Notes under the pieces: generated by a model
Seen by the model: only the letters and a program-made list of their open reading frames with translations
The model's database searches: none
Told to the model about the DNA's origin: nothing
DNA from: Pseudomonadota bacterium
Lineage (GTDB): Bacteria; Pseudomonadota; Gammaproteobacteria; Burkholderiales; Gallionellaceae
Length of the DNA: 64,000 bases
Direction: 5' to 3'
Assembly (NCBI GenBank): GCA_043826585.1
Contig: JBDRPZ010000043.1
Span: 481 to 64,480, forward strand
Shown here: piece after piece, positions 12,490 through 58,582 of the stretch
Layout of the letters: each line of letters begins with the position of its first letter
Position numbering within the stretch: position 1 is the stretch's first letter
Made by a program: the position numbers and the translations under genes

Positions 12490-12498
12490 GATGTTTGT

Positions 12499-13488: not shown

Positions 13489-13586
13489 CAGATGTCCTCC
13501 GCCAGACGCAGACCGGAGAACATCCAGCGGTCCGCAGCCCGGAAAAAGTTGCGGTAACTAACGCGCATATGATCCTGTGCATTGAC
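13488..13586 (-). other. in-frame continuation of egtB after its TGA, encoding the conserved EgtB C-terminus
   Basis: 32 sense codons [32 protein letters not shown] in the egtB frame. The terminating TGA (13490-13488) overlaps the egtD ATG. Confidence 0.75.
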
Positions 13587-14726: not shown

Positions 14727-14733
14727 CGTTTCG

Positions 14734-15024
14734 TCACTCCTCTATGGTGACGCCGTGCCAGAACGCGACGTGATCCTTGATGCGGGCCGCCATGGCTGAC
14801 GGCTCGGGGTAGTACCATGCTGCATCCTCATTCACTTTCCCGTCAACCTCGACGTTGTAATAACTCGCTTCACCCTTCCACACGCAATGCGAGTGCGAGC
14901 TGCTGGGCTTGAGGTATTCCTGCTTCACGGATGATAGCGGGAAATAGATGTTGCCTTCCACGCGATGGATATCCTTGCTCGCCGCTTCGGCGATGATCTG
15001 ATCGTTCCAGATGGCTTTGGGCAT
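14734..15024 (-). CDS. DUF427 domain protein
   Basis: 96 aa. Pattern ...VEGNIYFP...HCVWKGEASYYNV...AAWYYPEP... is typical of DUF427. Its stop lies 7 nt upstream of the egtB start. Confidence 0.8.
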   Translation of the reverse strand: MPKAIWNDQIIAEAASKDIHRVEGNIYFPLSSVKQEYLKPSSSHSHCVWKGEASYYNVEVDGKVNEDAAWYYPEPSAMAARIKDHVAFWHGVTIEE

Positions 15025-15123
15025 GTTGTTCTCCTGTATGGCTAGTGTTCGATTGGTGGCCGTTGCTATGTGTCAGTCGCTTGATATCCGTTGAACCTTA
15101 CAGTGTGATGAATCCTCATCGAT

Positions 15124-15351
15124 CTATTCATCGCAACACCGCATCTCGTTGCGTGCCGCGCTGTAACTCGATACGCAGAACGGCACTACGAAGTTGAGCA
15201 ACATCTGTGTCAGGTTGATGGGGCCGCCCGAGATCAGATTGCCGCCCTGATTCACCAGGTTGAGCAGGCTGCCGACCACCAGCGCCACCTTCAATGCCGG
15301 GAACATGATCTGGCGGCGGCTGGCGATGCGGAGCAGGCGTATCAAGCGCAT
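15124..15351 (-). CDS. NrtS-like small membrane protein (putative nitrate/nitrite transporter family)
   Basis: 75 aa with two hydrophobic segments. ALKVALVVGSLLNLVNQG...VVPFCVSSYSA resembles the NrtS family as I recall it. Confidence 0.55.
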   Translation of the reverse strand: MRLIRLLRIASRRQIMFPALKVALVVGSLLNLVNQGGNLISGGPINLTQMLLNFVVPFCVSSYSAARNEMRCCDE

Positions 15352-15359
15352 GACACTGG

Positions 15360-15806
15360 CTAACGGAAGTGGCGGCGCAGGATGCGCTCTGCATCAGGTG
15401 CGGCGATGTCTTCCTTGTTCAGGAACAGGAACACATCACGTTCGCCCAGCTTCGGATGTCCTTCCGCCTTGGCGTTGAACGGCAGGATGGTCGCGCCGGG
15501 GTGCAGGTCGCTCACGATGCGCTGCAGGGTGGGCTGGGTCGAATCGAACTCCGTCAATCCCGCGAATATCACCGGCAGGTTCGGATAGTTCTTGCGCAAC
15601 GCGGCGAACACCTCCGCGGGCTTGGCCGGTATGGAAGAGACGACCGCCGTCGAGATGATCGCGCCGCTGAACGACCCAAGTTTGCCGGGATGTATATCGC
15701 CGATGTCCTCCAGTTTGCTCGGCTGGTATCCGTTCTTTTCGAGGAAAGGCCTCATCTCCGAAACGATGAATGCATGCGGTCGTGCAAGTAAGACTTTCTT
15801 GGCCAT
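15360..15806 (-). CDS. hypothetical protein (148 aa)
   Basis: ATG ORF co-directional with its neighbours. Family not recognised. Confidence 0.5.
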   Translation of the reverse strand: MAKKVLLARPHAFIVSEMRPFLEKNGYQPSKLEDIGDIHPGKLGSFSGAIISTAVVSSIPAKPAEVFAALRKNYPNLPVIFAGLTEFDSTQPTLQRIVSDLHPGATILPFNAKAEGHPKLGERDVFLFLNKEDIAAPDAERILRRHFR

Positions 15807-15816
15807 GGTGCGCGCC

Positions 15817-16680
15817 TTATGCGGTGGCTACGCCATGTTGGCGCAGCACCTCCAGAAAGGTGTCTGGCTCGGGTCGCACGCTGTAGTTGTCCGTCTCGTG
15901 CGACCACAGAATCTTGCCGTCCTTGCCGGTGATGATCACCGTCGGCATCACTGTGTCGCTGTCGTAGCCAAGTACCTGCATGCCCATGGGCAGGCCGTTC
16001 TTGTGTTCGATGCCCAATGCACGTGCGGCTGCATTGCCTTCATCGGTGAGGAAATCGAACTTCGCGTCGTAGGTTTTGGAAATACCGATGGTGTTCTCGT
16101 GCGGTTGCGGGGCGATGAAGGCGACGCGCACGCCGAGTGCATCGATCTCTTTGTAGCGCGCAATCAGTTCTTTCAATTGCGCGGAGCAGAACGGGCACCA
16201 GTTGCCGCGATAGAAGATCAGGATCGCAGGACGGTCGGTCAATTGTGACGAGCTGACCATCTTGTCGTTCACATCGCGCACGCTGAAGTGCGGCAGTTTC
16301 GCGCCGACCATCAGTTTTTCGCTGGGCTGACGGTTGTCGTAGGTCGAGAACCAGTATGAGTACAACAGGAAGGTCACCCAGCCGCTGGCAGCCAGCAATG
16401 CCGCCACAGCTTCTGCGCCAGTGGTCGCCCATTCAAACGCGGCCAGCGCTGCGCCAGCCAGTCCCAGCACATTGATAACGGGAAAGTGTTCGCTGGTGCG
16501 TGCAAGGTTCTTCAGCATCATGGCGCGCATGATCACGGTCAGGATGGGGGCTACGGTCAGCATCACGCCGCCCCAGACCATCGGTGCGCCGCCTTGAGAG
16601 AGCATCCAGCCCGCATACGCGGCGATGCCCATGATGACCATCATGTATGTACTGATGAAGATGGATTTGAGCAGGTTCAT
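15817..16680 (-). CDS. membrane-anchored peroxiredoxin-like (AhpC/TSA-redoxin) protein
   Basis: About 4 N-terminal TM helices, then a redoxin domain with FYRGNWCPFCSAQL. ATG 16680 has GGAG 6 nt upstream. The ORF-track start at 16692 is TTG. Confidence 0.75.
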   Translation of the reverse strand: MNLLKSIFISTYMMVIMGIAAYAGWMLSQGGAPMVWGGVMLTVAPILTVIMRAMMLKNLARTSEHFPVINVLGLAGAALAAFEWATTGAEAVAALLAASGWVTFLLYSYWFSTYDNRQPSEKLMVGAKLPHFSVRDVNDKMVSSSQLTDRPAILIFYRGNWCPFCSAQLKELIARYKEIDALGVRVAFIAPQPHENTIGISKTYDAKFDFLTDEGNAAARALGIEHKNGLPMGMQVLGYDSDTVMPTVIITGKDGKILWSHETDNYSVRPEPDTFLEVLRQHGVATA

Positions 16681-16737
16681 TTTAGTCTCCAATGTGTCCG
16701 GTTGCCGCCGCGCGATCGCGCGGCGGATGGTGCGTGC

Positions 16738-17325
16738 TTATGCCGCCTTCTTGCAGCAGGCATACTCGTCAGGTGCCTGCCAGGCTTCGTTGGCGAATGC
16801 GGCATCCAGCGGCGTGTCGGTCAGGTGGTTGGTGTAGTTGCTCAGTGTCTTCATGGTGACGCCGAGCAATACTTCCAGCGCGTTCTGTTGCGTATAACCG
16901 GCGGCGAAGAAATCCTTCAGCTCCTGACTGCCGACCACCCAGCCGCGCTCGCGCACTACGGCACGGGTGAATGCCACCAGCGCATTCAGCTTCTGGTCCT
17001 GCAGGCAGCCTTGTGCACGCAGTGCATCGACGCGCGCACCGTCGACCTTGACCAGGTTGCGTGCGAGGAATGAATGCGCGGCTACGCAGTATTCGCAGCG
17101 GTTCTCGATGCTGGCCGAGATCAATACGATCTGCTGCTCTTCCGGGGTGAGGGCGCTCTGCTCTAGCAATGCGCCCAGTTGCTTGTAGGCGCTCAGCGCG
17201 TTCGGTGCTTCAGCCAGATGCGCATACAGATTGGGGATGAAGCCCAGGCCTTTGTTGGCGGCTTCGAGGATGGGCAAAGCGCCGACGGGCGCGCTTGCGA
17301 GGTCATGCAGTTTGAATGTGTTCAC
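16738..17325 (-). CDS. carboxymuconolactone decarboxylase/AhpD-like family protein
   Basis: CxxC-type motif ENRCEYCVAAH. The probable start is GTG 17325 with AGGAGA upstream (family N-terminus ..NTFKLHDLASAP). The longest ORF starts at 17373. Confidence 0.8.
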   Translation of the reverse strand: MNTFKLHDLASAPVGALPILEAANKGLGFIPNLYAHLAEAPNALSAYKQLGALLEQSALTPEEQQIVLISASIENRCEYCVAAHSFLARNLVKVDGARVDALRAQGCLQDQKLNALVAFTRAVVRERGWVVGSQELKDFFAAGYTQQNALEVLLGVTMKTLSNYTNHLTDTPLDAAFANEAWQAPDEYACCKKAA

Positions 17326-17441
17326 GGTCGTCTCCTGAATGGGTTGGGCAACGTATTTGTTGCGTGGACCCATTGTCAGGATGCGGAGGCTTGCCCTCCA
17401 TGACCGGAACAGCGTGATTTATGTCCGAACGTCCGGAAGCT

Positions 17442-18341
17442 TCAGCCGCGCACCTTGCCCGGCGGCACGCCGACGATGCGCTTGAACGCCTTGCGGAACG
17501 CGGCTTCCGATTCGTAGCCGCAGCGCAGCGCGATATCCAGCATGTTGGCGCGTTCGTCCGCCAGCATGGCTGTCGCCATCTGCATGCGCCAGGTCGCCAC
17601 GAATTCCATGGGCGGCATCTTCACCATCTGGCTGAAGCGGTCAGAGAACGCGGAGCGCGACTGGCAGGCCAGGGCCGCCATGCGTTCCACTGTCCAGACT
17701 TCGGCAGGCGCATCGATGAAGGCGGATACGGCTGGGCGCAGGTGTTCATCCGCTAGCGCGGACAGCAGTGGCGAAAGTTTGGGGTCCATCTCCAGTACAT
17801 GGCGCATCACATACAGGAACAGGATATCGGCCAGCCGGTCGAGGATCGCATTCGCGCCCAGCGCATTCTGCATCGCTTCATCCGTCATCAACTCGATCAA
17901 TGTGCGTATCTGAACGCCGGGCGGACTCTTGTCCGGGCGGATCAGCAGGAAGTCGGGGAAGGCAGCCAGCAGCAGGCGGCGGATGTGCGGCGGCAGATAC
18001 AGATGTCCGCATAACAGACCGGCACCCGGTGCATCGCGGTCCAGCGGGGCAGGGTGGCGGAAATCGCAGGCCTGTTCCGGGATGCCGGGCACGGCGCTGA
18101 AGGTGTGCGATGCGTCATGCGCGAAGAGGGCGATGTCTCCCGCATTCATGCGCGCGGGTTTGCTGCCGTCCGGCATCACGATCCACGCCTCGCCGTGACA
18201 CACCAGATGGAAAGTCGTCGCGTCCGAGCCGCCGGGAGTGGACATGTGCCATGCATCGCACAACTGGCCGACGTAATACACCTCGGCGCCGAGATGCAGG
18301 CGGCGCAGGAAGTCGTTGACCGGAAGCGGTGTTGTGTTCAT
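17442..18341 (-). CDS. AraC-family transcriptional regulator with N-terminal cupin domain
   Basis: 299 aa. C-terminal double HTH (...ALACQSRSAFSDRFSQ..., ...IALRCGYESEAAFRKAFKR...). Confidence 0.85.
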   Translation of the reverse strand: MNTTPLPVNDFLRRLHLGAEVYYVGQLCDAWHMSTPGGSDATTFHLVCHGEAWIVMPDGSKPARMNAGDIALFAHDASHTFSAVPGIPEQACDFRHPAPLDRDAPGAGLLCGHLYLPPHIRRLLLAAFPDFLLIRPDKSPPGVQIRTLIELMTDEAMQNALGANAILDRLADILFLYVMRHVLEMDPKLSPLLSALADEHLRPAVSAFIDAPAEVWTVERMAALACQSRSAFSDRFSQMVKMPPMEFVATWRMQMATAMLADERANMLDIALRCGYESEAAFRKAFKRIVGVPPGKVRG

Positions 18342-18348
18342 CCGGCTC

Positions 18349-18525
18349 TCAGAGTTTGCGCGGCAGTTCGCGTGCCGCCTTGCGGATGAAGGCGAGTTGT
18401 TTCTCGAAGTTGCGGCAACCCCGGCACATCAGCAGATGCATGCGCATGGCGATGCGCTCGCGCAAGGTGATGGGGCGGTCGTAGGATTGCGACAGGAGTT
18501 CGGTGTTGTGTTTGCAGTCGAGCAT
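18349..18525 (-). CDS. zinc-binding (ZAS, zf-HC2) anti-sigma factor, 58 aa, missing from the ORF track
   Basis: MLDCKHNTELLSQSYDRPITLRERIAMRMHLLMCRGCRNFEKQLAFIRKAARELPRKL carries an HxxxCxxC motif. It starts 7 nt after the sigma-factor stop. Confidence 0.7.
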   Translation of the reverse strand: MLDCKHNTELLSQSYDRPITLRERIAMRMHLLMCRGCRNFEKQLAFIRKAARELPRKL

Positions 18526-18531
18526 GTATGG

Positions 18532-19095
18532 TTACCTCGCGTTTCCAAACCAGTTCAGATCCAGGCATTCGCGCAATGCCAGCCGCGCGCGGTGCAGGAT
18601 CACCCAGCAGTTAGCCGTGGTGATATCCAGTTCCTGACAGATCTCTTCGGTCGACATGTCCATGAACTCGCGCATCATGAAAGCGCGCGCGGTGTTGAGC
18701 GGCATGCGCTGGTTGCATTGCTCGAACACGTTCCAGAAATGTGTGTTCTCCAGCGATTGTTCCGGTGCGTTCCAGGTCTGCGGCGGATCGGCCCAGTGGC
18801 CGTTCTGCTTGAACAGCGCGTCCACTAGTTGGTTCTCGTCTTCGCCTTCGGCCACATCCAGTTGCGGTTCGCGCGCGCGTTTGCGCAACACATCCATGAT
18901 CTTGTGTTTGAGTATGCCCACCAGCCAGGTGCGCGGCGAAGACTGTGCGGCGAACTTGGCTCTGCCCTCTATAGCGGCCACCAGCGTCTCCTGCACCACA
19001 TCCTCGGCCAAGTTGGGGTCGCGCAGTTGCAGCATGGCGTAGCGCAACAAATAGCTGCGATGTTCATGCAATACCTGGGGATCGATGTCGCTCAT
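18532..19095 (-). CDS. ECF-subfamily RNA polymerase sigma-70 factor
   Basis: 187 aa with region 2 (...YLLRYAMLQLRDPNLAEDVVQETL...) and region 4 (...STEEICQELDITTANCWVILHRAR...). Confidence 0.9.
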   Translation of the reverse strand: MSDIDPQVLHEHRSYLLRYAMLQLRDPNLAEDVVQETLVAAIEGRAKFAAQSSPRTWLVGILKHKIMDVLRKRAREPQLDVAEGEDENQLVDALFKQNGHWADPPQTWNAPEQSLENTHFWNVFEQCNQRMPLNTARAFMMREFMDMSTEEICQELDITTANCWVILHRARLALRECLDLNWFGNAR

Positions 19096-19971: not shown

Positions 19972-20346
19972 ATGTTCAAGAAACTGTTATTCACGCTGGC
20001 CCTGCTGTTCCCCCTGTTCGCGCAGGCTGCAGGCCAGCCCTACACCCAGGACAAACTGGATGCGCTGAACAAGGCAGGTAAACCTGCGCTGGTGTTCATC
20101 CATGCCCCATGGTGCCCGACCTGCCGCGCGCAGGATGCCGTGCTGGACAAGTTGCTGCCGACCGCCGAGTTCAAACCCCTCACTACGCTCAAGGTAGATT
20201 TCGACGACCAGCAGGATGTGGTGAAGGCATTCGGCGTGCGCTACCAGAGCACGCTCATCGTGTTCAAGGGCGGCAAGGAAGTGGCGCGCGTGACCGGCGA
20301 GACGGACAGGGACAAGATCGCTGCGTTGTTGCGCAAGGCGCTGTAA
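19972..20346 (+). CDS. periplasmic thioredoxin
   Basis: 124 aa from ATG 19972, with AGGAG at 19961-19965. Signal peptide MFKKLLFTLALLFPLFAQA and active site WCPTC. The 505-aa ORF starting at 18829 is a spurious upstream extension. Confidence 0.85.
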   Translation: MFKKLLFTLALLFPLFAQAAGQPYTQDKLDALNKAGKPALVFIHAPWCPTCRAQDAVLDKLLPTAEFKPLTTLKVDFDDQQDVVKAFGVRYQSTLIVFKGGKEVARVTGETDRDKIAALLRKAL

Positions 20347-20349
20347 GCG

Positions 20350-21075
20350 ATGGAACTGAGCGCAAGCAGCTACAGCCTGTCGTTTCTGGCCGGCGTGCTG
20401 TCTACCCTGTCGCCCTGCGTGTTGCCGCTGGTGCCCATCCTGATGGGCTCGGCGGCGGGCACGCATCGCTTCGGCCCGTTCGCGTTGGTGGGCGGGCTGA
20501 TGCTGTCGTTCACGCTCATTGGCGTGGGGCTGGGTTCGCTGGGCGGCAGCATCGGTCTGGAGCAGGATACGTTGCGCATGGTCGGTGGCATCTTGCTGCT
20601 GTTGTTCGGCGCGGTGCTGGTCTCCAGCCGCTTGCAGGACAGGTTCAGCGCGGCGGTCAGCCAGTTGGGTGTGGGGCAGGGCATGCTGGCGCGTTTCAAC
20701 CTGGACGGTCTGCATGGTCAGTTCCTGCTCGGTCTGTTGCTCGGCGTGGTGTGGAGTCCATGCGTCGGCCCGACCCTGGGCGTGGCGATCACATTAGCCA
20801 GTCAGGGCGAAGCGATGGTGCAGGTCGCTTCGGTGATGCTAGTGTTCAGTCTCGGTGCCGGATTGCCCTTGCTCGCACTCGGCATGTTGTCGCGACAGGC
20901 GATGGGCAAGTGGCGCGGGCGCATGCTGGCTGCGGGGCAGAAGGCCAAGAAACTGTTCGGTGTCGCCTTGCTGCTGATCGGCGTGCTGGTGCTGTCGGGT
21001 GCGGACAAGGGCTTCGAGCGTTGGGCGGTCAACGCCATGCCGGAGTGGATGGTTAACCTGACTACACGCTACTGA
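20350..21075 (+). CDS. CcdA/DsbD-like cytochrome c biogenesis thiol:disulfide transporter
   Basis: 241 aa, 6+ TM helices, conserved LSPCVLPLVP and ...WSPCVGP... motifs. Confidence 0.85.
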   Translation: MELSASSYSLSFLAGVLSTLSPCVLPLVPILMGSAAGTHRFGPFALVGGLMLSFTLIGVGLGSLGGSIGLEQDTLRMVGGILLLLFGAVLVSSRLQDRFSAAVSQLGVGQGMLARFNLDGLHGQFLLGLLLGVVWSPCVGPTLGVAITLASQGEAMVQVASVMLVFSLGAGLPLLALGMLSRQAMGKWRGRMLAAGQKAKKLFGVALLLIGVLVLSGADKGFERWAVNAMPEWMVNLTTRY

Positions 21076-21090
21076 GAAGTGGAGGCGAAG

Positions 21091-21927
21091 ATGTCCGAGA
21101 AAGAATCCCTGTTGAATACGCTGCTTGGTCTGTCGATGATCGTCGAGGCGCGCGATCCGTACACAGGCGGCCACCTGTGGCGTGTGTCGCAATTCTCCAA
21201 GTTGCTGGCGCAGGAGGCGGGCCTGTCGCAACGTGACATCGCGTTGTGCGAGGTCGGCGGCTTCCTGCACGACCTGGGCAAGGTCGGTGTGTCCGACGCC
21301 ATCCTCAACAAGCCGGATCGGCTCACCGATGGCGAATACGCTGTGATCAAGACACATCCCTCGGTCGGCGGTCGTCTGCTGTCCAACCATCCGTTGGCTG
21401 ATCTGGCCTACGAGGCGGTGGTCGGCCACCACGAACGACCGGACGGCAACGGCTACCCGAACGGATTGGCCGGCGAAGTCATCCCGGAAGTCGCGCGCAT
21501 CGTCAGCATCGCCGACGCCTTCGACGCCATGACCAGCACACGCGCCTATCGCAAAGGCATGCCGATGGAAAAAGCATTCTCCATCATCGGCGAAGAAACG
21601 GGACGCCAGTTCGATGCGAAGCTGGCGAAACATTTCCTGTCGCTGAGCAAGACCAGCCAGTTGTCGCACATCGTCGGTCACAGCGAACCCGGCTTGCCGC
21701 TGTTCCAGTGCGGTTGCGGCGCACCGCTGGCGATACGTGGCTCGATGCGCGACGGCGAGCATGCGTATTGCCACTGCTGCGGCGGTGAATCGCGCCTGAG
21801 CAAACATGGCGACGAGCGCAAACTGGAAATGACAGGCAAGAAAGGCGATGCCTCGGTGCTCGCGCCGGACTGCGACACCGACCTGATCGGGGCGATGGTG
21901 GAAGAGATCGCGCCGCATGTGTTGTGA
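21091..21927 (+). CDS. HD-GYP domain protein (putative c-di-GMP phosphodiesterase) with C-terminal Cys-rich ribbon
   Basis: HDLGK...GHHERPDGNGYP motifs. C-terminal FQCGCG...YCHCCG. ATG 21091 has GGAGG 5 nt upstream; the ORF-track start at 21079 is GTG. Confidence 0.85.
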   Translation: MSEKESLLNTLLGLSMIVEARDPYTGGHLWRVSQFSKLLAQEAGLSQRDIALCEVGGFLHDLGKVGVSDAILNKPDRLTDGEYAVIKTHPSVGGRLLSNHPLADLAYEAVVGHHERPDGNGYPNGLAGEVIPEVARIVSIADAFDAMTSTRAYRKGMPMEKAFSIIGEETGRQFDAKLAKHFLSLSKTSQLSHIVGHSEPGLPLFQCGCGAPLAIRGSMRDGEHAYCHCCGGESRLSKHGDERKLEMTGKKGDASVLAPDCDTDLIGAMVEEIAPHVL

Positions 21928-21935
21928 GCTGAAAA

Positions 21936-22313
21936 ATGAACACACAACTGAATAACACGGTCGAGATCAACGGCAGGCAGGTGCTGGTGGAGTGGAGCAA
22001 AGCCGCCGCCCGCGAACTCGCGCAACGCAGCCAGCCGCTGGTGGTCGAGCTGGAACTCTACTTCTCCTGCCTGGTGAAGAAGTTCGTCCACTTTCATGAA
22101 GGACAGCAACAGCGGGATACCATCACCGTGAGCGACAAGCTCGCCGTCTTCTTCCGTCCCGTCACTTCAACCGCCTGTTCGTTCGAAGTCGCAGACCGCC
22201 TGGGTCGACAGCCGGAGATCGAGCTCGACACGCCCAACGTGCGCAAGATCGCACCGAAGCGCATCAGGCTGGATTATGTGCGCGGCAATTGGCTGGGGGA
22301 GTTCTGGATATAG
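21936..22313 (+). CDS. hypothetical protein (125 aa), last gene of the trx-ccdA-HD-GYP operon
   Basis: ATG ORF 9 nt after the HD-GYP stop. Family not recognised. Confidence 0.5.
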   Translation: MNTQLNNTVEINGRQVLVEWSKAAARELAQRSQPLVVELELYFSCLVKKFVHFHEGQQQRDTITVSDKLAVFFRPVTSTACSFEVADRLGRQPEIELDTPNVRKIAPKRIRLDYVRGNWLGEFWI

Positions 22314-22340
22314 CGCCATCAGAGGATGGTTGCCTGAATA

Positions 22341-22904
22341 TCAGAGACTCAAGAACTGCTTTCTTTCGAAGTCCATCGCCTTATCAAAAGCAAGTGGGTT
22401 GGCGGTCAGCCGCTGGATGATCAGGGTTCCTTCAACCACGACCAGGAATCGTTCTGCCCACAGCTTGGCATCATTGCTTTTCAAGCCAGCTTCCATTCCC
22501 AACTTTTGCAGCGCTTCCAGGAATGCGAAGTAATTCTTGCTCACCTGAGCTCTGATTTCTTCTTTTGCTTCGCCAAGACTCAGCGTATTCAGCAGGCAAT
22601 TTTTTGCCCCATTGCTGTAGAACGTTTTGAGCGTTTCCACCATTGTGCTGAAACGGGCCTGCGGTGTCTTTTGTGTATCCAGCAGCGGCTCGATGACGTT
22701 CTGCTGCAGCTGCCCGCTGAAATAGGAAACGACCGCCTTGACCATATCCACTTTTCCCTCTGGAAAGTAGTGGTAGAGACTGGATTTTCTCAAACCGGTG
22801 ACTTCCGATAACTGTGAGAGCGTCGTTCCTTCATAGCCATGACAGCGGAATACCTCGAAGAGGGATTCCATGATTGTGTCGTTGGGTGTGGATTGCTGTG
22901 CCAT
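22341..22904 (-). CDS. TetR/AcrR-family transcriptional regulator
   Basis: 187 aa. N-terminal HTH ...GYEGTTLSQLSEVTGLRKSSLYHYFP... Confidence 0.85.
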   Translation of the reverse strand: MAQQSTPNDTIMESLFEVFRCHGYEGTTLSQLSEVTGLRKSSLYHYFPEGKVDMVKAVVSYFSGQLQQNVIEPLLDTQKTPQARFSTMVETLKTFYSNGAKNCLLNTLSLGEAKEEIRAQVSKNYFAFLEALQKLGMEAGLKSNDAKLWAERFLVVVEGTLIIQRLTANPLAFDKAMDFERKQFLSL

Positions 22905-22946
22905 CTATTGTTCTCCTGAATTTGCTTGACATCATACCGAACGTTC

Positions 22947-22992
22947 GTTAGATTTCAACTGTACCGAACGTTCGGTACAGTTGAAATCTAAC
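22947..22992. promoter_or_regulatory. 46-bp perfect palindrome (candidate TetR operator or leader hairpin) in the divergent promoter region
   Basis: GTTAGATTTCAACTGTACCGAAC | GTTCGGTACAGTTGAAATCTAAC. The inner box CGAACGTTCG (22965-22974) recurs at 22938-22947. Confidence 0.6.
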
Positions 22993-37270: not shown

Positions 37271-37279
37271 CGTGTCACC

Positions 37280-49072: not shown

Positions 49073-49112
49073 GATAAAAAGAGGACCAACATGCAACATG
49101 CCGGTCCTCTTT
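49073..49112 (-). terminator. rho-independent terminator after aprA
   Basis: Perfect 10-bp stem AAAGAGGACC / GGTCCTCTTT (49078-49087 / 49103-49112) with a 15-nt loop and a T-run on the minus strand. Confidence 0.6.
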
Positions 49113-49189: not shown

Positions 49190-49330
49190 CTAGTGATGGT
49201 CTACCGGCGGTGCCTTTTCCACATCGCCCACCAGGTGGTAGAGCGGTGCTTTCTCCATGGTGTACTCGCCGGTCTTGGGATCGCGGCGGGACACGGTGAG
49301 CACGAGCCAGTTCTGGTCGTCCAGCTACAT
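49190..49330 (-). other. in-frame continuation of aprA (ATG, TAG, then 45 sense codons) encoding an AprA-like C-terminus
   Basis: Same frame as aprA: M-TAG-LDDQNWLVLTVSRRDPKTGEYTMEKAPLYHLVGDVEKAPPVDHH-TAG (stop at 49190-49192). Confidence 0.75.
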
Positions 49331-51082
49331 CTAGTCGCCGCGAGAGTAGTAGCCCGGCCAGCGGGTCTCATCGCGGAACAGGGTGTGATGGAACACGCTT
49401 TCCGAAGTCAGGAAGCGATGCTTCAGTTCCCATGCACGCAGCAGTTCATGGATATCGGAAGCGGCAACATTCTCCAGATCCTCGCCCAGGATGGACATCT
49501 TCTTCAGGCCGATGTTGAGCAACTTGTCGTTGGTCATGTAGTTGACGCCGAAACCAGCGCAATACTCGTCCATCAACTTCTGCAGACGGTCCAGACCCTG
49601 ACGCGGGTTGATGAAGTTGGGGTTGACGGTACCGGCCACCACTTCATTGCTGTACACGCGATAGGTTTCCAGCGGCTTGTAGATCTGCTCGCGGCGGCGC
49701 TCGATCTGCGCGGAAGACACGCGGATACCTTCTGCCTTGCCGTCGTCGATGTACTTGCATGCTGCCTTGGCTGCCAGACGACCTTCGGTGAAGGAGCCGG
49801 AGGAGAACGCGTGCGGTGTACCGCCGACCGCGTCACCGGCACCGAACAGACCTTCGATGGTGGTCATGCGGTTGTAGCCCCAGAAGTATTCGGTCGGGGA
49901 GATGTCTTCCGGACCGGAACACCATGCGCCGCAACCGGTGGCGTGTGAACCCATCACATACGGCTCGGAGGTGGTCAGCTCGGGGTTCTCGTACTTGGGG
50001 TCCACGTCGGTGGCGGCCCACAGCACGGCCTGGCCCACGGTCATGCCGAGGAAGTTGTGCCAGCCGATCTCTTCCAGATGCGGATCCTGGAAGGCTTCCA
50101 TGGTGACCATGTGGATCGGACCGCGACCGGCGTTCACCTCGTTGATGATGGCGTGGTTACGCAAACAGGTCGGGATCGGACGGTGCGTGCGGTGGGACAC
50201 TTCCGGATCCAGATATTCCTTGCCCACCATTTGCTGCAGTGCCGGGAACCACTTGGATTCGTACTCTTCACCATAGGCGTTCTGGGTGTAGGTCTTGAGG
50301 TGCAGGAAGTAGGCACCGACCGGGCCGTAACCATCCTTGAAGCGGGCCAGCACGATACGGTTTTCCATCTGGGTCATCTTGGCGCCGGCTTCGATCATCA
50401 GACCGTAAGCGGAACCGGAAGACCACGGTGCGTACCAGACGCGGCCTGCACCTTCGCCGACGGAACGCGGCTTGAAGATGTTGGAGGCGCCGCCTGCACC
50501 GCAGATCACGGCCTTGGATTTGAACACGTGGTAGTTGCCCGTGCGCACGTTGAAGCCCACGGCACCGGCGACGCGGTTCTCTTTGGACTCGTCCATCAGC
50601 AGGTGGGTCACGCAGATGCGGTTGAACACCTTGTCGGCGGACTTCTTGGCGGCCTCGGCCACGATGGGCTTGTAGGATTCACCGTGGATCATGATCTGCC
50701 AGCGGCCTTCACGCAGGAACGAACCCTTTTTCTCGTCGCGCATGATGGGCAGGCCCCATTCTTCGAAGTTGTGCACGGTGGAGTCGACGTGGCGAGCCAT
50801 GTCGAACAGCAGGTCTTCGCGCACCATGCCCATCAGGTCGATACGCGCATAGCGCACATGGTCCTCGGGATTGTTCTCGCCGAAGCGTGTGCCCATGTAG
50901 CAGTTGATCGCATACAGGCCTTGCGCCACCGCGCCGGAACGCATGATGTTCGCTTTCTCGGCGATGACGATCTTTTTGTTCTGGCCCCAATATCTCGCCT
51001 CGAATGCCGCGCCTGTACCGCCCAGACCGGCACCGACCACCAGGATGTCGATATTGTCTTCAATGATAGTCGAGTAGCTCAT
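49331..51082 (-). CDS. aprA: adenylylsulfate (APS) reductase alpha subunit AprA, truncated as sequenced by TAG at 49331-49333
   Basis: 583-aa ORF. FAD motif ILVVGAGLGGTGAAFEA and an AprA-like body through ...FRDETRWPGYYSRGD. The full-length frame is 49190..51082 (631 codons) and contains two TAG codons. Confidence 0.9.
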   Translation of the reverse strand: MSYSTIIEDNIDILVVGAGLGGTGAAFEARYWGQNKKIVIAEKANIMRSGAVAQGLYAINCYMGTRFGENNPEDHVRYARIDLMGMVREDLLFDMARHVDSTVHNFEEWGLPIMRDEKKGSFLREGRWQIMIHGESYKPIVAEAAKKSADKVFNRICVTHLLMDESKENRVAGAVGFNVRTGNYHVFKSKAVICGAGGASNIFKPRSVGEGAGRVWYAPWSSGSAYGLMIEAGAKMTQMENRIVLARFKDGYGPVGAYFLHLKTYTQNAYGEEYESKWFPALQQMVGKEYLDPEVSHRTHRPIPTCLRNHAIINEVNAGRGPIHMVTMEAFQDPHLEEIGWHNFLGMTVGQAVLWAATDVDPKYENPELTTSEPYVMGSHATGCGAWCSGPEDISPTEYFWGYNRMTTIEGLFGAGDAVGGTPHAFSSGSFTEGRLAAKAACKYIDDGKAEGIRVSSAQIERRREQIYKPLETYRVYSNEVVAGTVNPNFINPRQGLDRLQKLMDEYCAGFGVNYMTNDKLLNIGLKKMSILGEDLENVAASDIHELLRAWELKHRFLTSESVFHHTLFRDETRWPGYYSRGD

Positions 51083-51564
51083 CAGTATTGCACTCCCTCT
51101 TTGATTTCCAGGCCATTGGATTCCAGTGTGTGCAGACCACCGTCATCCATACGGATATATTTCGGTTCGTTGAACAGCAACTGGCTGTCGCGCATCTCCT
51201 TGCTCGGTGCGGGCACCTTGCCGAGGTCGGGCGTGGCCGAGCCCCAGGGCTTGGTGGTGATCGGGGCGAGCAGCTCCATGTCTTTCTTGCCGTTGCGGAA
51301 CTTGATGCGCCACGCAATCGTGCCTTTCTCTTCGTCGCGGATCACGCGGACGCTGTGGCCCAACGGGGCGAAGTCGGCATAGCCGCGCACGTCGATGGCC
51401 TGGTGCGGGCAGGCTTTCACGCAGGAGTAGCACTCCCAGCACATGTTCGGTTCGATGTTGTAGGCACGACGCAGCTTCTTGTCGATGTGCATGATGTCGG
51501 AAGGGCAGATGTCGACGCATTCCCCACAGCCATCACAACGAGTCATATATACAAAGGTTGGCAT
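51082..51564 (-). CDS. aprB: APS reductase beta subunit AprB
   Basis: 160 aa. MPTFVYMTRCDGCGECVDICP and CWECYSCVKACP 4Fe-4S motifs plus the AprB C-terminal tail. The stop overlaps the aprA ATG. Confidence 0.95.
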   Translation of the reverse strand: MPTFVYMTRCDGCGECVDICPSDIMHIDKKLRRAYNIEPNMCWECYSCVKACPHQAIDVRGYADFAPLGHSVRVIRDEEKGTIAWRIKFRNGKKDMELLAPITTKPWGSATPDLGKVPAPSKEMRDSQLLFNEPKYIRMDDGGLHTLESNGLEIKEGVQY

Positions 51565-51591: not shown

Positions 51592-52428
51592 TTAGTAGTG
51601 GTTCGGGCGCTCGGCCTTGATGCACAGCCCCATGTTGGGCGGGTTCTTGCCCATGTACATCGGGACGTCCGGGAATTTGCGCTGTACTTCGGGATCGGTC
51701 AGGTCGTAGTCCGGCGGCAGGTTTTCGCGTGAGCCGTCGGCCACTGTGATCTTCTTCTGGTGTGCTGCAGCAGGCTTGAAGAACATGTGCGCGAACTTGG
51801 ACCAGTACACGCCGCCGAACAGCACGGTACTGGACAAGATGAACAGGGCGAACGGGATGCCCAGTCCGCCGCCGGTGAACGACCAGATCAAGGCGAATGT
51901 CGCGGTGGCAAGCAGCGACAGGATGAACAGGTCGGCGCGCTCGACGCGGAAGCAGGGCAGGCCTTCCGCCGAGACATCGACGCGGATGAAGAACCAGAAC
52001 CAGTAGCCGCCGATGGCCAGCATCAGTGCGCCCAGATGCCAGAGTTGAGGCAGGATGGCGGGGGTGGTTGAGCCGGGCGCGGTATAGCCGAAGATCATGA
52101 TCGCTGTGGTCGCGGCGAAGATGATGAAACCGTACATGGTCAGCAGGTGGGACATGCGGCGACGCGGATTGCTGAATTCGCCGGAGGTCAGCACTTCATG
52201 CGCCAGCACTGAAGCGGCGATTACGGCCTTCTCGCCGCCACTCACGGTACGCTTGGCGTTCTTCTGAGCTTTCTTGGCATTCTCGAAAAAGTACTTGGCG
52301 CTTTTCTTGTGCATCATGTCCAGTATCGTCCCGCCCATGACCAGCAGGACCATAAGAACGATATATCCCTGCATCATCGCTGGGGATATGACATCTGAAA
52401 GTGCGGCAAAGAGGTTGCTCGTCAACAT
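51592..52428 (-). CDS. aprM: AprM-like membrane anchor of APS reductase
   Basis: 278 aa, about 5 TM helices, located between sat and aprB as in sat-aprMBA operons of sulfur oxidisers. AAGGAGA RBS. Confidence 0.65.
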   Translation of the reverse strand: MLTSNLFAALSDVISPAMMQGYIVLMVLLVMGGTILDMMHKKSAKYFFENAKKAQKNAKRTVSGGEKAVIAASVLAHEVLTSGEFSNPRRRMSHLLTMYGFIIFAATTAIMIFGYTAPGSTTPAILPQLWHLGALMLAIGGYWFWFFIRVDVSAEGLPCFRVERADLFILSLLATATFALIWSFTGGGLGIPFALFILSSTVLFGGVYWSKFAHMFFKPAAAHQKKITVADGSRENLPPDYDLTDPEVQRKFPDVPMYMGKNPPNMGLCIKAERPNHY

Positions 52429-52491: not shown

Positions 52492-53667
52492 CTATCCGCT
52501 ATTCAATCCCGCGTAGTACTTGCGCAATATATCCAGCACTTCGGGGCGGCTGAATTCCGCCGGCACTTCTTCGCCTTCGGAAAGCATCTTGCGCAACTGG
52601 GTGCCGGACACCTGCAGACGGTCGTCGTCGCCATGCGGGCAGGTGCGCGCCGAGGCCATGCCGCCGCACTTGTAGCACCAGAAGGAGACGTCGATCTTCA
52701 GTGCCTGGGTCTCCAGTGCGTCCTTGGGGATCTTGTCGAAGATGTGGTGTGCGTCGAAGGGACCGTAGTATTTGCCGACGCCCGCGTGGTCGCGACCGAC
52801 GATCAGGTGTGAGCAGCCGTAGTTCTGGCGGAACAGCGCATGCAGCAGCGCTTCGCGCGGGCCGGCATAACGCATGTCCAGCGGGTAGCCGGATTGCACC
52901 ACGGTCTTGCCGACGAAGTAGTTCTGGGTCAGCGCGATGATGGCGTGGGTGCGCACCTCGGCCGGTATGTCGCCCGGTTTGAGGTTGCCGAGCAGGGAGT
53001 GGATCATCACGCCGTCGCACACCTCGATGGCGATCTTGGCCAGATACTCGTGCGAACGGTGCATGGGGTTGCGCGTCTGGAAGGCGGCGACCTTGCTCCA
53101 GCCCATCTCTGTGAACAGCGCGCGCGTCTCTTGCGGCGTCATGTACATCGCGCCGTATTTCTGCGGGAAGCCGCCTTGCGACAACACCTTCACCGGTCCG
53201 GCCAGATTCACCTCGCCCTGTTCCATCACCATTTTCACACCGGGATGTTCAAGATCGGTGGTGCCGAATACGGTGGCGCATTCGTGCGCCTTGTCTATGG
53301 TGTATTTCTCGGTCACCTGCATGGTGGCGAGGATGCTGCCGTCGTCCGGGTCGACCAGCGAGATGTAGTTGCCGGTGGGGATGGCGTCGGCTGTGGACTT
53401 GTCGGTAGAAAGGGTGATGGGGATGGGCCAGAACAGGCCGTTGGTGAGCGTCATGCCGTCGCAGACACCTTGCCAGTCGGCGTGGCTCATGAAACCGTCC
53501 AGCGGTGTGAAGCCGCCTATGCCGAGCATGATGAGGTCGCCTTTTTCGCGAGAACTCACTGTTACTTTGGGGTAACTACGTGCCCGATTCAACTCTGCTA
53601 TCAGATCTTCTCCCACTAGCAATAGTGGTTTGAGATCTTTCCCGCCATGCGGGTTTACCAATGCCAT
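52492..53667 (-). CDS. sat: sulfate adenylyltransferase (dissimilatory ATP sulfurylase) Sat
   Basis: 391 aa with motifs ...[13 protein letters not shown]... and ...[11 protein letters not shown]... Confidence 0.95.
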
Positions 53668-53946: not shown

Positions 53947-56862
53947 ATGTCATCGACACCATTGCACGACCCATTGGCGCCGCCGGTTGCTGGCGCCACG
54001 ACCGAGATCAAGAAGACCACCTGCTATATGTGCGCATGCCGCTGCGGTATCCGCGTGCATCTGCGCAACGGCGAGGTGCGTTACATCGACGGCAACCCCG
54101 ACCACCCGCTGAATGGCGGCGTGATCTGTGCCAAGGGTTCCTCGGGCATCATGAAGCAGTATTCTCCGGCGCGTCTGACCAAGCCGCTGCGCCGCAAGCC
54201 GGGCACCGAGCGTGGTGCGGGCGAGTTCGAAGAGATCAGCTGGGAAGAGACGTTCACGCTGCTCGCTGATCGTCTCGGTGAGTTGCGTGCGACCGATCCG
54301 AAGAAGTTCGCACTGTTCACCGGCCGCGACCAGATGCAGGCGCTGACCGGCATGTTCGCGCGCCAGTTCGGCACGCCGAACTATGCGGCACACGGCGGCT
54401 TCTGCTCGGTCAACATGGCGGCCGGCATGATCTACACCATCGGTGGTTCGTTCTGGGAATTCGGCGGTCCCGACCTGGAGCGTTCCAAGCTGTTCATCAT
54501 GATCGGCACGGCGGAAGACCACCACTCCAATCCGATGAAAGTGTCGCTGGCCAAGTTCAAACGCGAGGGTGGCCGTTTCATCTCCATCAATCCGGTGCGC
54601 ACCGGCTATTCCGCCATCGCCGACGAGTGGGTGCCCATCCGTCCCGGTACCGACGGCGCGCTGTTCCTCGCCATCATCCGCGAGTTGATCGAGCTGGGGC
54701 TGTACGACCGCGAGTTCCTGGTGCGCTACACCAACTCCGGCCAGCTGGTGAACCTGGATGCGGAACACGACGAGTTCGGCATGTTCGTGCGCACCGAGGT
54801 GCCGGAAGAAGAGGGCTGTTACGACCCGCAGAACAAACTGTGGTGGGACCGTAACACCAACAAGCCGGTGGTGACCCATACCGAAGGCGCCGATCCTTTC
54901 CTGCGCGGCGAATTCAAGTTGAGCGACGGCACGCCGGTGAAGCCCGCGTTCCAGTTGTTGAAGGATCGTGTCGCGGAGTACACGCCCGAGTGGGCGGAAG
55001 GCGTAACCGGCATTCCGGCCGACACCATCCGTCGTCTGGCGCACGAGATGGGCATTACCGCCCGCGACCAGAAGATCGAACTGCCGATCGCCTGGACGGA
55101 CAGCTGGGGCAAGGAACACCAGACGGTCACCGGCAATCCGGTGTCTTTCCACGCCATGCGCGGACTGGCTGCGCACTCCAACGGTGTCCATACCATCCGT
55201 GCGTTGTCCATCCTGATGACCTTGCTGGGCACCATCGACCGTCCGGGCGGTTTCCGTCACAAGACACCGTTCCCGCGTCCGATCCCGCCTTGTGCACGTC
55301 CGCCCAACGACCCGCGCGCGGTGCAGCCGAACACACCGCTGGACGGCATGCCGTTGGGTTGGCCTGCCGATCCGGACGATCTGTTCGTGGACAAGGAAGG
55401 CGAAGCGGTACGTATCGACAAGGGTTTTTCATGGGAATACCCGCTGTCGGCGCATGGCCTGATGCACAACGTGATCACCAACGCATGGCGCGGTGATCCG
55501 TACAAGATCGACACGCTGCTGCTGTTCATGGCCAACATGGCATGGAACTCCACCATGAACACCAGCGAAGTGCGCAAGATGCTCACCGACAAGGACGAGA
55601 ACGGCGAGTACAAGATCCCCAATATCGTGGTGTGCGACGCCTTCCATTCCGAGACGACTGCATTTGCCGATCTGATCCTGCCGGACACGACCTATCTGGA
55701 GCGTCATGACGTGATGTCCATGCTGGATAGGCCGATCTCCGAGTTTGACGGTCCGGTGGATTCGGTACGCATCCCTGTGATGCCGCGTACCGGTGATTGC
55801 CTGCCGTTCCAGGAGGTGTTGATCGAACTGGGTACGCGCTTGAAGTTGCCTGCATTCGTGACGCAGGACGGCGCACGCAAGTATCGTGACTATCCCGACT
55901 TCATCGTCAACTGGGAGACTGCACCGGGTTCCGGCATCGGTTTCCTGTCCGGCTGGCGCGGCAAGGGCGGCGAGAAGAGCATGAAGGGCGAGCCGAACCC
56001 GAACCAGTGGGAGATGTACGCCAAGAACGACTGTGTGCACCATGAGGTGTTGCCACGCTCTTACCAGTTCATGCGCAACTGGAATCAGGGCTATCTGGAA
56101 TGGTCGCAGCGCAACGGTATCACGCGCTATGCCGAGCCCATCCTCATCCACCTGTATTCCGAGGTGATGCAGAAGTTCCGTCTGGCCGCGCAGGGCAAGA
56201 GCATCACGCGCCAGCCGCCCAAGCATCTGGCCAAGCGCGTCGAGACCTATTTCGATCCGCTGCCGTTCTACTACGAACCGTTGGAGACGCAAGCCAGCGA
56301 CAAGCAGAAGTATCCGCTGTCCGCCGTGACACAACGCCCGATGGCGATGTATCACTCGTGGGATTCGCAGAACGCATGGTTGCGTCAGATCCACGCACAC
56401 AACTATCTGTATGTGAATGCGCTGACCGCGAAGAATGCGGGCATCGGCGACGGCGACTGGATCTGGTGCGAATCGCAATGGGGTAAGGTGCGCTGCATGG
56501 CGCGCTATAGCGAGTCGGTGGAGCCAGGCACGGTGTGGACCTGGAACGCCATCGGCAAGGCTGCCGGTGCGTGGAACCTGACGCCCGATGCGAACGAATC
56601 GCAGCAGGGTTTCCTGCTCAATCACCTGATCTCGGAAGAATTGCCGAAGCAGGCGGACGGTTCGCGCTTCTCCAACTCCGACCCGATCACTGGGCCGGCA
56701 GCCTGGTATGACGTGCGTGTTCGTATCTACAAGGCGGAAGAGGGCGAGCCGCAACAGACCTCGCCGCAGTTCCCACCCATGAAGAAATATCCCGGTATGA
56801 AAGATGCGCCGACCTGGTTGGCCTACTTGGCGGGAGCAAGAAAGAAAGGCGGTGCGAAATGA
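53947..56862 (+). CDS. soeA: molybdopterin subunit of cytoplasm-facing sulfite:quinone oxidoreductase, SoeA-like
   Basis: 971 aa from ATG 53947. N-terminal Fe-S motif CYMCACRCGIRVH with no twin-arginine signal. bis-MGD oxidoreductase body. The ORF-track start at 53647 is an upstream extension. Confidence 0.8.
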   Translation: MSSTPLHDPLAPPVAGATTEIKKTTCYMCACRCGIRVHLRNGEVRYIDGNPDHPLNGGVICAKGSSGIMKQYSPARLTKPLRRKPGTERGAGEFEEISWEETFTLLADRLGELRATDPKKFALFTGRDQMQALTGMFARQFGTPNYAAHGGFCSVNMAAGMIYTIGGSFWEFGGPDLERSKLFIMIGTAEDHHSNPMKVSLAKFKREGGRFISINPVRTGYSAIADEWVPIRPGTDGALFLAIIRELIELGLYDREFLVRYTNSGQLVNLDAEHDEFGMFVRTEVPEEEGCYDPQNKLWWDRNTNKPVVTHTEGADPFLRGEFKLSDGTPVKPAFQLLKDRVAEYTPEWAEGVTGIPADTIRRLAHEMGITARDQKIELPIAWTDSWGKEHQTVTGNPVSFHAMRGLAAHSNGVHTIRALSILMTLLGTIDRPGGFRHKTPFPRPIPPCARPPNDPRAVQPNTPLDGMPLGWPADPDDLFVDKEGEAVRIDKGFSWEYPLSAHGLMHNVITNAWRGDPYKIDTLLLFMANMAWNSTMNTSEVRKMLTDKDENGEYKIPNIVVCDAFHSETTAFADLILPDTTYLERHDVMSMLDRPISEFDGPVDSVRIPVMPRTGDCLPFQEVLIELGTRLKLPAFVTQDGARKYRDYPDFIVNWETAPGSGIGFLSGWRGKGGEKSMKGEPNPNQWEMYAKNDCVHHEVLPRSYQFMRNWNQGYLEWSQRNGITRYAEPILIHLYSEVMQKFRLAAQGKSITRQPPKHLAKRVETYFDPLPFYYEPLETQASDKQKYPLSAVTQRPMAMYHSWDSQNAWLRQIHAHNYLYVNALTAKNAGIGDGDWIWCESQWGKVRCMARYSESVEPGTVWTWNAIGKAAGAWNLTPDANESQQGFLLNHLISEELPKQADGSRFSNSDPITGPAAWYDVRVRIYKAEEGEPQQTSPQFPPMKKYPGMKDAPTWLAYLAGARKKGGAK

Positions 56863-57590
56863 CACAGCTCGCATTGGTGATCGATTTGAACGTGTGCGTG
56901 GGTTGTAGCGCCTGCGTGACCAGTTGCAAGGAATGGAACACTTCCGGCTCGGCCGGCCCGCTGGTGGATGAGCGCCCCTACGGCGAGAATCCGACCGGTA
57001 CGTTCTTCAATCGTGTGCAGACCTATGAGATGGGCACGTTCCCGAACAGCGAGACGATGCACTTTCCGAAATCCTGCCTGCATTGCGAAGACCCGCCGTG
57101 CGTGCCGGTGTGCCCGACCGGCGCTTCCTACAAGCGCAAGGAAGACGGCATCGTGCTGGTGGATTACGACAAGTGCATCGGTTGCAAATATTGCTCCTGG
57201 GCGTGCCCTTACGGCGCGCGCGAGATCGACGAGAAACAGAAGGTGATGAAGAAGTGCACCCTGTGCGTGGACCGCATCTACGACATGACCATGCCGGAAG
57301 AGGATCGCAAGCCTTCCTGTGTGAAGGCGTGCCCGACCAGTGCGCGTCTGTTCGGTGATATCCATGATCCGGAATCCGAGGTGTCGCAGGCCATCCGCGA
57401 GGACGGCGGCTACGCGCTGATGCCGGAGTGGGGTACGCATCCTTCCAATCACTATCTGCCGCGTCGCAAGACCAAAATGAAGATCCATGCCGACGAACTG
57501 GAGCGCGCCGACAATCCGCTCAAACTCGATCAGCAATTGCCCAAGCCGGACAAGGATCAGTCGACAATGGACGACGTGTCGGCCTGGTAA
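56859..57590 (+). CDS. soeB: 4Fe-4S ferredoxin subunit, SoeB-like
   Basis: 243 aa. MTQLALVIDLNVCVGCSACVTSC and three further Cys clusters. ATGA overlap with soeA. Confidence 0.8.
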   Translation: MTQLALVIDLNVCVGCSACVTSCKEWNTSGSAGPLVDERPYGENPTGTFFNRVQTYEMGTFPNSETMHFPKSCLHCEDPPCVPVCPTGASYKRKEDGIVLVDYDKCIGCKYCSWACPYGAREIDEKQKVMKKCTLCVDRIYDMTMPEEDRKPSCVKACPTSARLFGDIHDPESEVSQAIREDGGYALMPEWGTHPSNHYLPRRKTKMKIHADELERADNPLKLDQQLPKPDKDQSTMDDVSAW

Positions 57591-57610
57591 CCAGAACTTA
57601 GCGAGAAATT

Positions 57611-58582
57611 ATGAAACCAGCATTCTCAGTGATCTTTTTGACGACCTTGATCGGTGCGGCGCAGGGCCTGTTCCTCGCCCTGTTCACGCACCAGTCGTAT
57701 GCGCTGTTCGGTTTGTTGCCGATGCAGTCCGACGACTTCTACGGCTACGGCACGCTCATCGTGCTGGTGTTGCTGGCGGCGGGTCTGGTGGCATCATTCT
57801 TCCACCTTGGTCGTCCCGAACGGGCATGGCGTGCCGCCACGCAATGGCGCACGTCCTGGTTGTCGCGCGAGGTGATCGTGCTGCCCGCGTTCATGGGCGT
57901 GGCCTTCCTGTTCGGTGTGTCGCATCTGTTCGGCATCCGCCCCGAGATCGTTACCTTGCCGGGCGGTCATGTGGTCGATCTGTCGCTGTTACTGGGGGTG
58001 GCGGGGACGTTGCTGGCGTTCGCCTTGTTCGTGTGCACGGCGATGATCTATGCCTGTCTGCGCTTCCTCAAGGAATGGAACTCTCCGCTGACGGTCATCA
58101 ATTACATCCTGATGGGCGGTTCTTCCGGTTTCATCCTGGCGGCCTTCTATGCGGCTTCCGCCGCGCCGGATCAGGCAGACTTTTTCGCCGGTTGGGCGAT
58201 CATCATTACCGTGCTGGCACTGATCGGACGCGCGGCATCGCTGGTGCGCAATGCGCGCCTAAAGCCGACCTCGACCATACAGACCGCTATCGGCGTGAAG
58301 CATCCAAAGATCACCCAGCGTTCCATGGGCGCGATGGGTGGTTCGTTCAATACGCGTGAGTTCTTCCATGGCAAGAGCGATGGCTTCCTGCGCGCGATCA
58401 AGCCGACTTTCCTGTTGCTGGCTTTTGTCTTGCCGCTTGTGTTGCTGGCGTTCAGCATGTCCACGCCTGCATTGCTGGGGCTAGCGTTTATACTGCAATA
58501 CATCGGCTTGCTGGCCGAGCGCTGGTTCTTCTTTGCGCAGGCCAACCATCCGCAGAACCTTTATTACCAGACCGTAGGCTGA
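57611..58582 (+). CDS. soeC: NrfD/DmsC-like membrane quinone-interacting subunit, SoeC-like
   Basis: 323 aa, about 8 TM helices. Third gene of the Mo/FeS/membrane trio. Confidence 0.75.
   Translation: MKPAFSVIFLTTLIGAAQGLFLALFTHQSYALFGLLPMQSDDFYGYGTLIVLVLLAAGLVASFFHLGRPERAWRAATQWRTSWLSREVIVLPAFMGVAFLFGVSHLFGIRPEIVTLPGGHVVDLSLLLGVAGTLLAFALFVCTAMIYACLRFLKEWNSPLTVINYILMGGSSGFILAAFYAASAAPDQADFFAGWAIIITVLALIGRAASLVRNARLKPTSTIQTAIGVKHPKITQRSMGAMGGSFNTREFFHGKSDGFLRAIKPTFLLLAFVLPLVLLAFSMSTPALLGLAFILQYIGLLAERWFFFAQANHPQNLYYQTVG

Follow-up and report, generated by a model that had tools for sequence, protein, structure and literature searches.

Do the two amber codons that interrupt aprA, a gene for adenosine 5'-phosphosulfate (APS) reductase, in a genome of the Gallionellaceae mark an unusual use of UAG, a gene on its way to being lost, or an error of the record? 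The locus lies in a 64,000-nucleotide stretch of contig JBDRPZ010000043.1 (assembly GCA_043826585.1, positions 481 to 64,480 of the forward strand), hereafter called the window, where the aprA frame runs into TAG-ATG-TAG and then continues in phase. Judged by codon alignments with related genes, the two TAGs belong to a cluster of four substitutions that happens to turn two lysine codons amber, and a second, smaller cluster breaks the ergothioneine synthesis gene egtB elsewhere in the window. We consider it somewhat probable (roughly 0.55) that the TAGs in aprA are a private lesion of a deposited short-read contig from a metagenome-assembled genome (MAG) and that they stem from a sequencing or assembly artefact. 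The best explanation is that these two codons carry no biological signal.

The aprA frame and its substitution cluster

The open reading frame (ORF) on the minus strand (51082..49331) has 583 codons and closes with ...FRDETRWPGYYSRGD, followed by TAG-ATG-TAG. Past the second TAG the same frame continues with LDDQNWLVLTVSRRDPKTGEYTMEKAPLYHLVGDVEKAPPVDHH and ends at the TAG at 49192-49190. The features of this region are listed below, where L084 is one of the related loci and L089 a contig of a sister strain.

49190..51082, minus strand: full-length aprA frame with two internal TAGs, comprising 630 codon positions and the natural TAG stop
49331..49333, minus strand: first in-frame TAG, codon 584, corresponding to Lys AAG in the closest strains and to A, V, F or K across the family
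49325..49327, minus strand: second in-frame TAG, codon 586, corresponding to Lys in 123/123 homologues
49305..49344, minus strand: substitution cluster of 40 nt, delimited by aligning codons with those of L084 and other loci and by comparing bases with L089
49193..49324, minus strand: C-terminal tail of AprA, 44 sense codons, the same as L089 in DNA and protein except for L593
49190..49192, minus strand: natural aprA stop TAG; relatives end here with TAG, TAA or TGA
49078..49112, minus strand: intrinsic-terminator-like hairpin (16 pairs) with T-tract, 3' of the full-length aprA frame

Scored with X at both stops, the read-through translation matched the aprA family TIGR02061 over the whole profile (1-616/616; 1069.8 bits, cutoff 641.75). 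The AprA of A. fulgidus could be aligned with it through ...RWPGYYYRTDYPELNDEEW... up to the C-terminus, and the solved AprA chains of PDB 2fja and 1jnr matched the read-through frame end to end. Because the profile match is full-length and the A. fulgidus protein aligns to its C-terminus, these comparisons identify the tail after the stops as the genuine C-terminus of AprA. The closest AprA proteins come from Sideroxydans, Sideroxyarcus, Gallionella, and Ferrigenium (629-631 amino acids, up to 97-99% identity), and the best aprA match among GTDB species representatives, which do not include the genome of the window, had 91.5% nucleotide identity. By the same comparisons the protein is a standard member of TIGR02061 that departs from the family only in its interrupted frame, a feature confined to this record: the reading frame over the conserved C-terminal 47 residues is broken at codons 584 and 586 here and intact in the sister strain. 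A preliminary description, made from the sequence alone, had already seen the in-frame TAG-ATG-TAG with an AprA-like continuation, taken the tail for genuine AprA, placed a terminator hairpin with T-tract behind the frame, and called the upstream genes sat, aprM, and aprB intact. All of this was borne out, with the hairpin at 49112..49078 on the minus strand and with upstream genes that have the lengths seen in relatives and exact proteins on record. Its total of 631 codons also holds, while the 45 sense codons it gave for the tail are 44.

All four changes of the cluster are single-base transversions at coding-strand adenines relative to the alleles of the nearest genomes. Read on the coding strand, they are 49344 A>C (TAT>TCT, Y580S), 49333 A>T (AAG>TAG, K584 to stop), 49327 A>T (AAG>TAG, K586 to stop), and 49305 A>T (CAC>CTC, H593L); the first and the last replace a tyrosine and a histidine that are each present in 123/123 homologues. 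Where the closest AprA proteins read RWPGYYYRGD[K/V/A]MKLDDxNWHVLTV, the window reads RWPGYYSRGD-stop-M-stop-LDDQNWLVLTV. Residues unseen in the 123 homologues occupy exactly 4 of the window's 630 AprA positions, all of them in codons 580-593, and randomly placed codons would seldom lie so close together (P ~4e-5 for four within 14 of 631). A stop at codon 584 or 586 occurs in 0/123 homologues.

An intact counterpart of this allele exists. After reverting the four changes (Y580, K584, K586, H593), we looked up the 630-residue product as an exact sequence and found the predicted repaired AprA with K584 on public record (P0241). When V, A, Q or E took the place of K584, the protein had no exact counterpart on record, and neither had the truncated protein of 583 residues. 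The contig that encodes P0241 (L089) belongs to the Logan assembly of SRR32481250 and represents a sister strain with 97.6% nucleotide identity to the window over 2174 nt and zero indels. The two aprA genes differ at 41 positions, namely the 4 positions of the cluster and 37 third positions, scattered over the whole of aprA, where the change is synonymous, so that outside the cluster 0 non-synonymous stand against 37 synonymous differences and the tail is unchanged except for L593. This pattern indicates purifying selection on the whole of aprA until effectively the present. The preliminary description had held that two nonsense codons so close together are not typical of random decay, which agrees with a single tight cluster in a gene otherwise free of non-synonymous change, and it had proposed identifying the residues that face the TAGs; these are ordinary lysine AAG codons in the closest strains.

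The natural differences between the two aprA genes comprise ~24 transitions and 13 transversions, and the six changes in the aprA and egtB lesions are transversions throughout (6/6; P ~0.002 against the natural spectrum). Two members of the AprA cluster from JGI (P0244 and P0246) differ at 15-18 residues and hence are not the same strain. When JGI metagenome contigs were scanned with a 24-nt pattern that fits both alleles, only intact alleles were recovered, among them the expected intact positive control, and the stop allele was absent from the contigs scanned; a first scan with a 45-nt pattern had been too strict and gave zero matches.

The egtB lesion and the deposited record

The second lesion lies in egtB, for which the preliminary description had mentioned a similar in-frame stop. 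The stop is there, but its codon is TGA and not TAG, and 30 conserved in-frame codons follow it.

13494..14726, minus strand: full-length egtB frame of 412 codon positions, broken by a single in-frame TGA; natural stop and egtD start overlap (TGATG)
13582..13589, minus strand: small cluster of two changes 5 nt apart, the only mismatches to the same-strain contig L088

On the coding strand, 13587 C>A turns TGC into TGA (Cys to stop, at 13589-13587) and 13582 C>A turns ACT into AAT (Thr to Asn). A homologue search retrieved an intact EgtB of 412 residues (P0121) that is otherwise identical to the EgtB of the window. Its contig, L088, is part of the Logan assembly of SRR26275510 and agrees with window positions 12243..18959 at 6715/6717 bases, both mismatches being the egtB lesion. 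A second contig of that assembly (L090) is identical to positions 20119..22976 (2858/2858 bases), which brings the agreement over the two contigs to 9573/9575 bases, with egtB intact. At this level of identity, an independent assembly of raw reads holds the same strain with an unbroken egtB.

SRR26275510 was sequenced on Illumina NovaSeq as a metagenome of borehole SA2074A at the Äspö Hard Rock Laboratory (PMC11484514). Trimmomatic, MEGAHIT, and MetaBAT2 were the tools behind the MAGs of this project, which are deposited at NCBI; figshare is the only source of its single-cell genomes (PMC11484514). At least two Gallionellaceae are present in this dataset (L087 and L088/L090), with an identical AprB protein and 87.7% nucleotide identity in the apr region, and their co-occurrence may explain why the apr region of the window strain lacks whole genes in the Logan assembly of SRR26275510.

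For 15/15 intact window genes tested, exact proteins are on record from one NCBI contig, 64,708 nt long and the source of the window. Exact look-ups of the aprA and egtB products, truncated or intact, returned none from that contig. On the simplest reading, the deposited record itself would carry the stops and both genes would be annotated as untranslated pseudogenes.

Further lesions were sought as window-unique residues at invariant columns, in those window genes that have at least three relatives among the fetched loci (~6000 invariant columns). Beyond aprA and egtB, this screen returned only scattered, mostly conservative changes. Weak clusters in genes for a GGDEF protein, an Fe-S subunit, HupE, SulP, and others were set aside as ordinary divergence, as they lie in segments that are variable in relatives and mix transitions with transversions. 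By this measure the lesions in aprA and egtB are the only detectable ones in the window and both create stops, with the proviso that the preliminary description could notice only stops and that the invariant-column screen is blind to silent lesions. A codon-usage screen for more in-frame stops was too noisy, with antisense frames scoring well at 59% GC, and adjacent ORF pairs in the same frame, considered as possible broken genes, were all ordinary neighbouring genes.

No common methylation or sequence motif was apparent by eye at the six mutated bases of the two genes. The heptamer CGCGGCG stands just 5' of both clusters on the coding strand (49334-49342 and 13595-13603, minus strand). GGC-rich motifs trigger sequence-specific errors on Illumina instruments; this shared 7-mer was noticed post hoc, is at about chance level for two 50-nt segments, and is probably meaningless. 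Dephasing-type Illumina errors, that is, miscalls to the previous or next base, were rejected, as the changes do not fit them.

Weighing the explanations

We favour an artefact because the independent assembly of the same strain lacks the egtB lesion, because neither lesion was found in any independent sequence, and because two multi-hit knock-outs without neutral companions would make an unlikely natural history. Each of the two clusters involves one base type on one strand and is shorter than one short read. A single error-laden or damaged-template read might have been accepted into the consensus where coverage is thin, and the rescue of single-read paths as "mercy k-mers" by MEGAHIT would make such an acceptance possible. 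The real aprA of the organism would then be intact and encode an AprA of 630 residues, ...YYYRGDKMKLDDQNWHVLT....

Several points weigh against this explanation. Its support is at the level of assemblies. The MAG need not have been assembled from SRR26275510, and if it was, an assembler that follows the majority path would be expected to give the intact egtB, as Logan did. Both detectable lesions create stops, although random substitutions would seldom do so (P ~0.007 for at least two stops from four substitutions in 40 nt, as in aprA; P ~0.08 for at least one from two, as in egtB), and lesions free of stops were found neither in the ~9.6 kb of same-strain comparison nor in the ~6000 conserved columns. 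Finally, the intact aprA allele is known from the 97.6% sister strain and not from an identical strain.

These points leave room for a genuine and very recent origin, which we regard as a serious possibility, albeit a less likely one than an artefact. Here, a sub-lineage in the aquifer would have had aprA and egtB each knocked out by one multi-nucleotide event. The stops do appear to be present in the deposited record, and two nonsense-bearing lesions, unlikely for random errors, would fit a tolerated or favoured loss of function; the parallel soeABC cluster is intact next door. Slow-growing cells of deep groundwater (PMC11484514) would also be a plausible setting for the accumulation of lesions. 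The substitution spectrum fits real mutations, though it would also suit a damaged-template read: purine-to-T changes, confined to one strand in each gene, make up five of the six (three A>T on the aprA coding strand, two G>T on the plus strand of egtB; the sixth is A>C), and such strand coordination is a recognised signature of damage. According to the "A-rule", polymerases insert A opposite abasic or oxidised purines, which classically gives purine-to-T changes, and by analogy the rule might apply to the two lesions. The more specific proposal that they are real alleles, left by the bypass of abasic or oxidised purines and disabling aprA and egtB in a sub-lineage otherwise at the population consensus, is tentative and less likely still. 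What stands in the way of real mutations is that an independent assembly of the same strain leaves egtB unbroken and agrees with the window at every other base of the 9575 compared, that the stop alleles recur in no independent sequence found, and that two multi-hit knock-outs within 64 kb without neutral changes require several coincidences; extended to the whole genome, lesions at such a density would amount to an implausibly heavy load. Should the mutations be real, UAG and UGA would terminate translation, AprA would be a 583-residue protein without 47 conserved residues, and soeABC would be left for sulfite oxidation. The genome would then directly document how damage drives multi-nucleotide mutation, along with ongoing gene loss, in a very slowly growing subsurface iron/sulfur oxidiser, and it would be a modestly interesting case of damage-type clustered mutation with incipient gene loss in the deep biosphere.

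A technical change after assembly, whereby arbitrary bases replaced ambiguity codes or edited positions in the deposited record or downstream of it, is improbable. It would account for the missing truncated and intact products if the recorded proteins contained X, and the true base at all 6 positions is known from other assemblies. However, contigs of the MEGAHIT type come without ambiguity codes, the window has no N, and a pseudogene annotation is the simplest reading of the look-ups.

Decoding of UAG, be it pyrrolysine-like, by a suppressor tRNA-CUA, or by programmed read-through, would yield a full-length AprA and agrees with the preserved frame and the perfectly conserved C-terminus behind the stops. 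Yet TAG also terminates ten other predicted genes of the window, including sat, hypE, sulP, and that of the hydrogenase small subunit, all with lengths as in relatives, and it ends aprA itself. As their natural aprA stop, the window, L089, L084, and L082 have TAG, L083 and L085 have TAA, and L081 has TGA; because relatives interchange the three codons at this position, TAG behaves, on the alignments, as a plain terminator in this lineage. We reject recoding, which has next to no probability left, because it cannot explain the companion changes Y580S and H593L at invariant residues, because TAG is a routine terminator, because egtB is broken by TGA so that the interruptions are not confined to TAG, because the internal TAGs stand for ordinary lysine AAG codons at positions where stops are absent from all orthologues, and because scans of the 64-kb window returned zero tRNAs, hence no tRNA-CUA within it, and zero Rfam matches. 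Two read-through events in succession would, moreover, multiply two small efficiencies. Of the three options raised in the preliminary description, recent inactivation and a base-calling or assembly artefact thus remain in play, while read-through, suppression or Pyl-like decoding of UAG finds no support.

Adenine-specific hypermutation of the aprA 3' end by a diversity-generating retroelement (DGR) has a similarly negligible probability. All four aprA changes (4/4) do lie at coding-strand adenines near the 3' end, and the egtB lesion falls within a C-terminal domain with the FGE-sulfatase/C-type-lectin-like fold (Pfam PF03781), the usual target of DGR diversification. But the 64 kb hold no second copy of the region that could serve as template repeat or gene-conversion donor, no reverse-transcriptase domain was found among ORFs of at least 300 amino acids annotated directly or by synteny, both egtB changes (2/2) are at C and not at A, the aprA segment is invariant in all relatives, and DGR targets avoid codons able to mutate into stops. 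An ordinary old pseudogene, suggested by internal stops in a catabolic gene with soeABC as an alternative pathway, is excluded as slow decay because outside the cluster the gene differs from the sister strain by synonymous changes alone (37, against 0 non-synonymous) and has an unchanged tail after the stops, besides lacking indels and retaining intact operon partners, terminator, and natural stop.

If the lesions are artefacts of the record, they illustrate that internal stops in MAGs can mimic recoding or gene loss while being tiny private substitution clusters. In metabolic reconstructions, APS reductase and ergothioneine synthesis should accordingly not be scored as lost unless reads support it. 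An exact look-up of the repaired protein, a search for same-strain assemblies, and a count of synonymous and non-synonymous differences outside the lesion make up a cheap check that can be transferred to other cases.

Gene neighbourhood and relation to known systems

The genes around aprA are intact.

51082..51564, minus strand: aprB, 160 amino acids, its stop overlapping the aprA start; identical protein recorded from several genomes
51592..52428, minus strand: aprM, 278 amino acids; exact protein on record
52492..53667, minus strand: sat (ATP sulfurylase), 391 amino acids, TAG stop; exact protein on record
53947..58582, plus strand: soeABC-type molybdopterin oxidoreductase genes, divergent from sat; Pfam assignments on the syntenic loci L083-L085

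Downstream of aprA, between a DsrC-like gene (42791-43279) and conserved small ORFs beside the apr operon, two ORFs of 324 and 229 amino acids (43457-45121, minus strand) have a low codon-usage score and a single sub-threshold Pfam match to BamE. In the relative L094, the DsrC-like gene directly adjoins these small ORFs, and for this reason the region looks like a strain-specific insertion of ~2 kb. The DsrC-like gene also adjoins a complete uptake-type [NiFe] hydrogenase cluster (31768-42786) with small and large subunits, an Fe-S/CCG protein, HupE, HupH, HycI, and hypCDEF, and the molybdenum-cofactor genes moaA, moaC, and moeA are located elsewhere in the window. Given this gene content, including the hydrogenase cluster, the organism is equipped for the oxidation of hydrogen and sulfur, and probably also of iron.

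The segment between hupE and a gene pair encoding ParA/MinD-like and GGDEF proteins (28718-31729) is a variable hotspot among relatives. It holds a MocR-type regulator and a CcoG/FixG-like protein in the window, nothing in L092 (12386-13994), ~6 kb of oxidoreductase and cupin genes in L093 (13737-19486), and CheB/CheR and PAS-GGDEF-EAL genes in L094 (12741-18014). L092 (GCA_054604835.1) additionally carries a ParE-toxin/antitoxin pair between hypD and hypC (5159-5664), which is absent from the window, L093, and L094.

Compared with the TIGR02061 AprA of sulfur-oxidising Gallionellaceae, the locus has the same operon order (sat-aprM-aprB-aprA) and the same length of 630 residues once read through, and it differs in that a 40-nt stretch carries two TAGs and, at invariant residues, two missense changes that occur in no other member, as do neither of the TAGs. 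The resemblance to pyrrolysine insertion or amber suppression is superficial and limited to an in-frame UAG with a conserved frame downstream, since here UAG is unconserved in orthologues, TAG is the normal terminator, egtB carries TGA, and missense companions are present. With translesion multi-nucleotide mutation the lesions share strand-coordinated purine-to-T/C transversions within tens of nucleotides; they differ in that the alleles were seen in one record and that no further event of this kind could be detected in the window. The consensus errors of short-read metagenomes are similar in being private to one record, shorter than a read, and free of indels, and they also match the absence of the egtB lesion from the same-strain assembly and a spectrum of 6/6 transversions that is unlike natural divergence, although both lesions here create stops, as random errors seldom do, and the comparison was made on assemblies. 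The lesion thus resembles known consensus errors of MAGs or known clustered mutations and is not a new kind of system.

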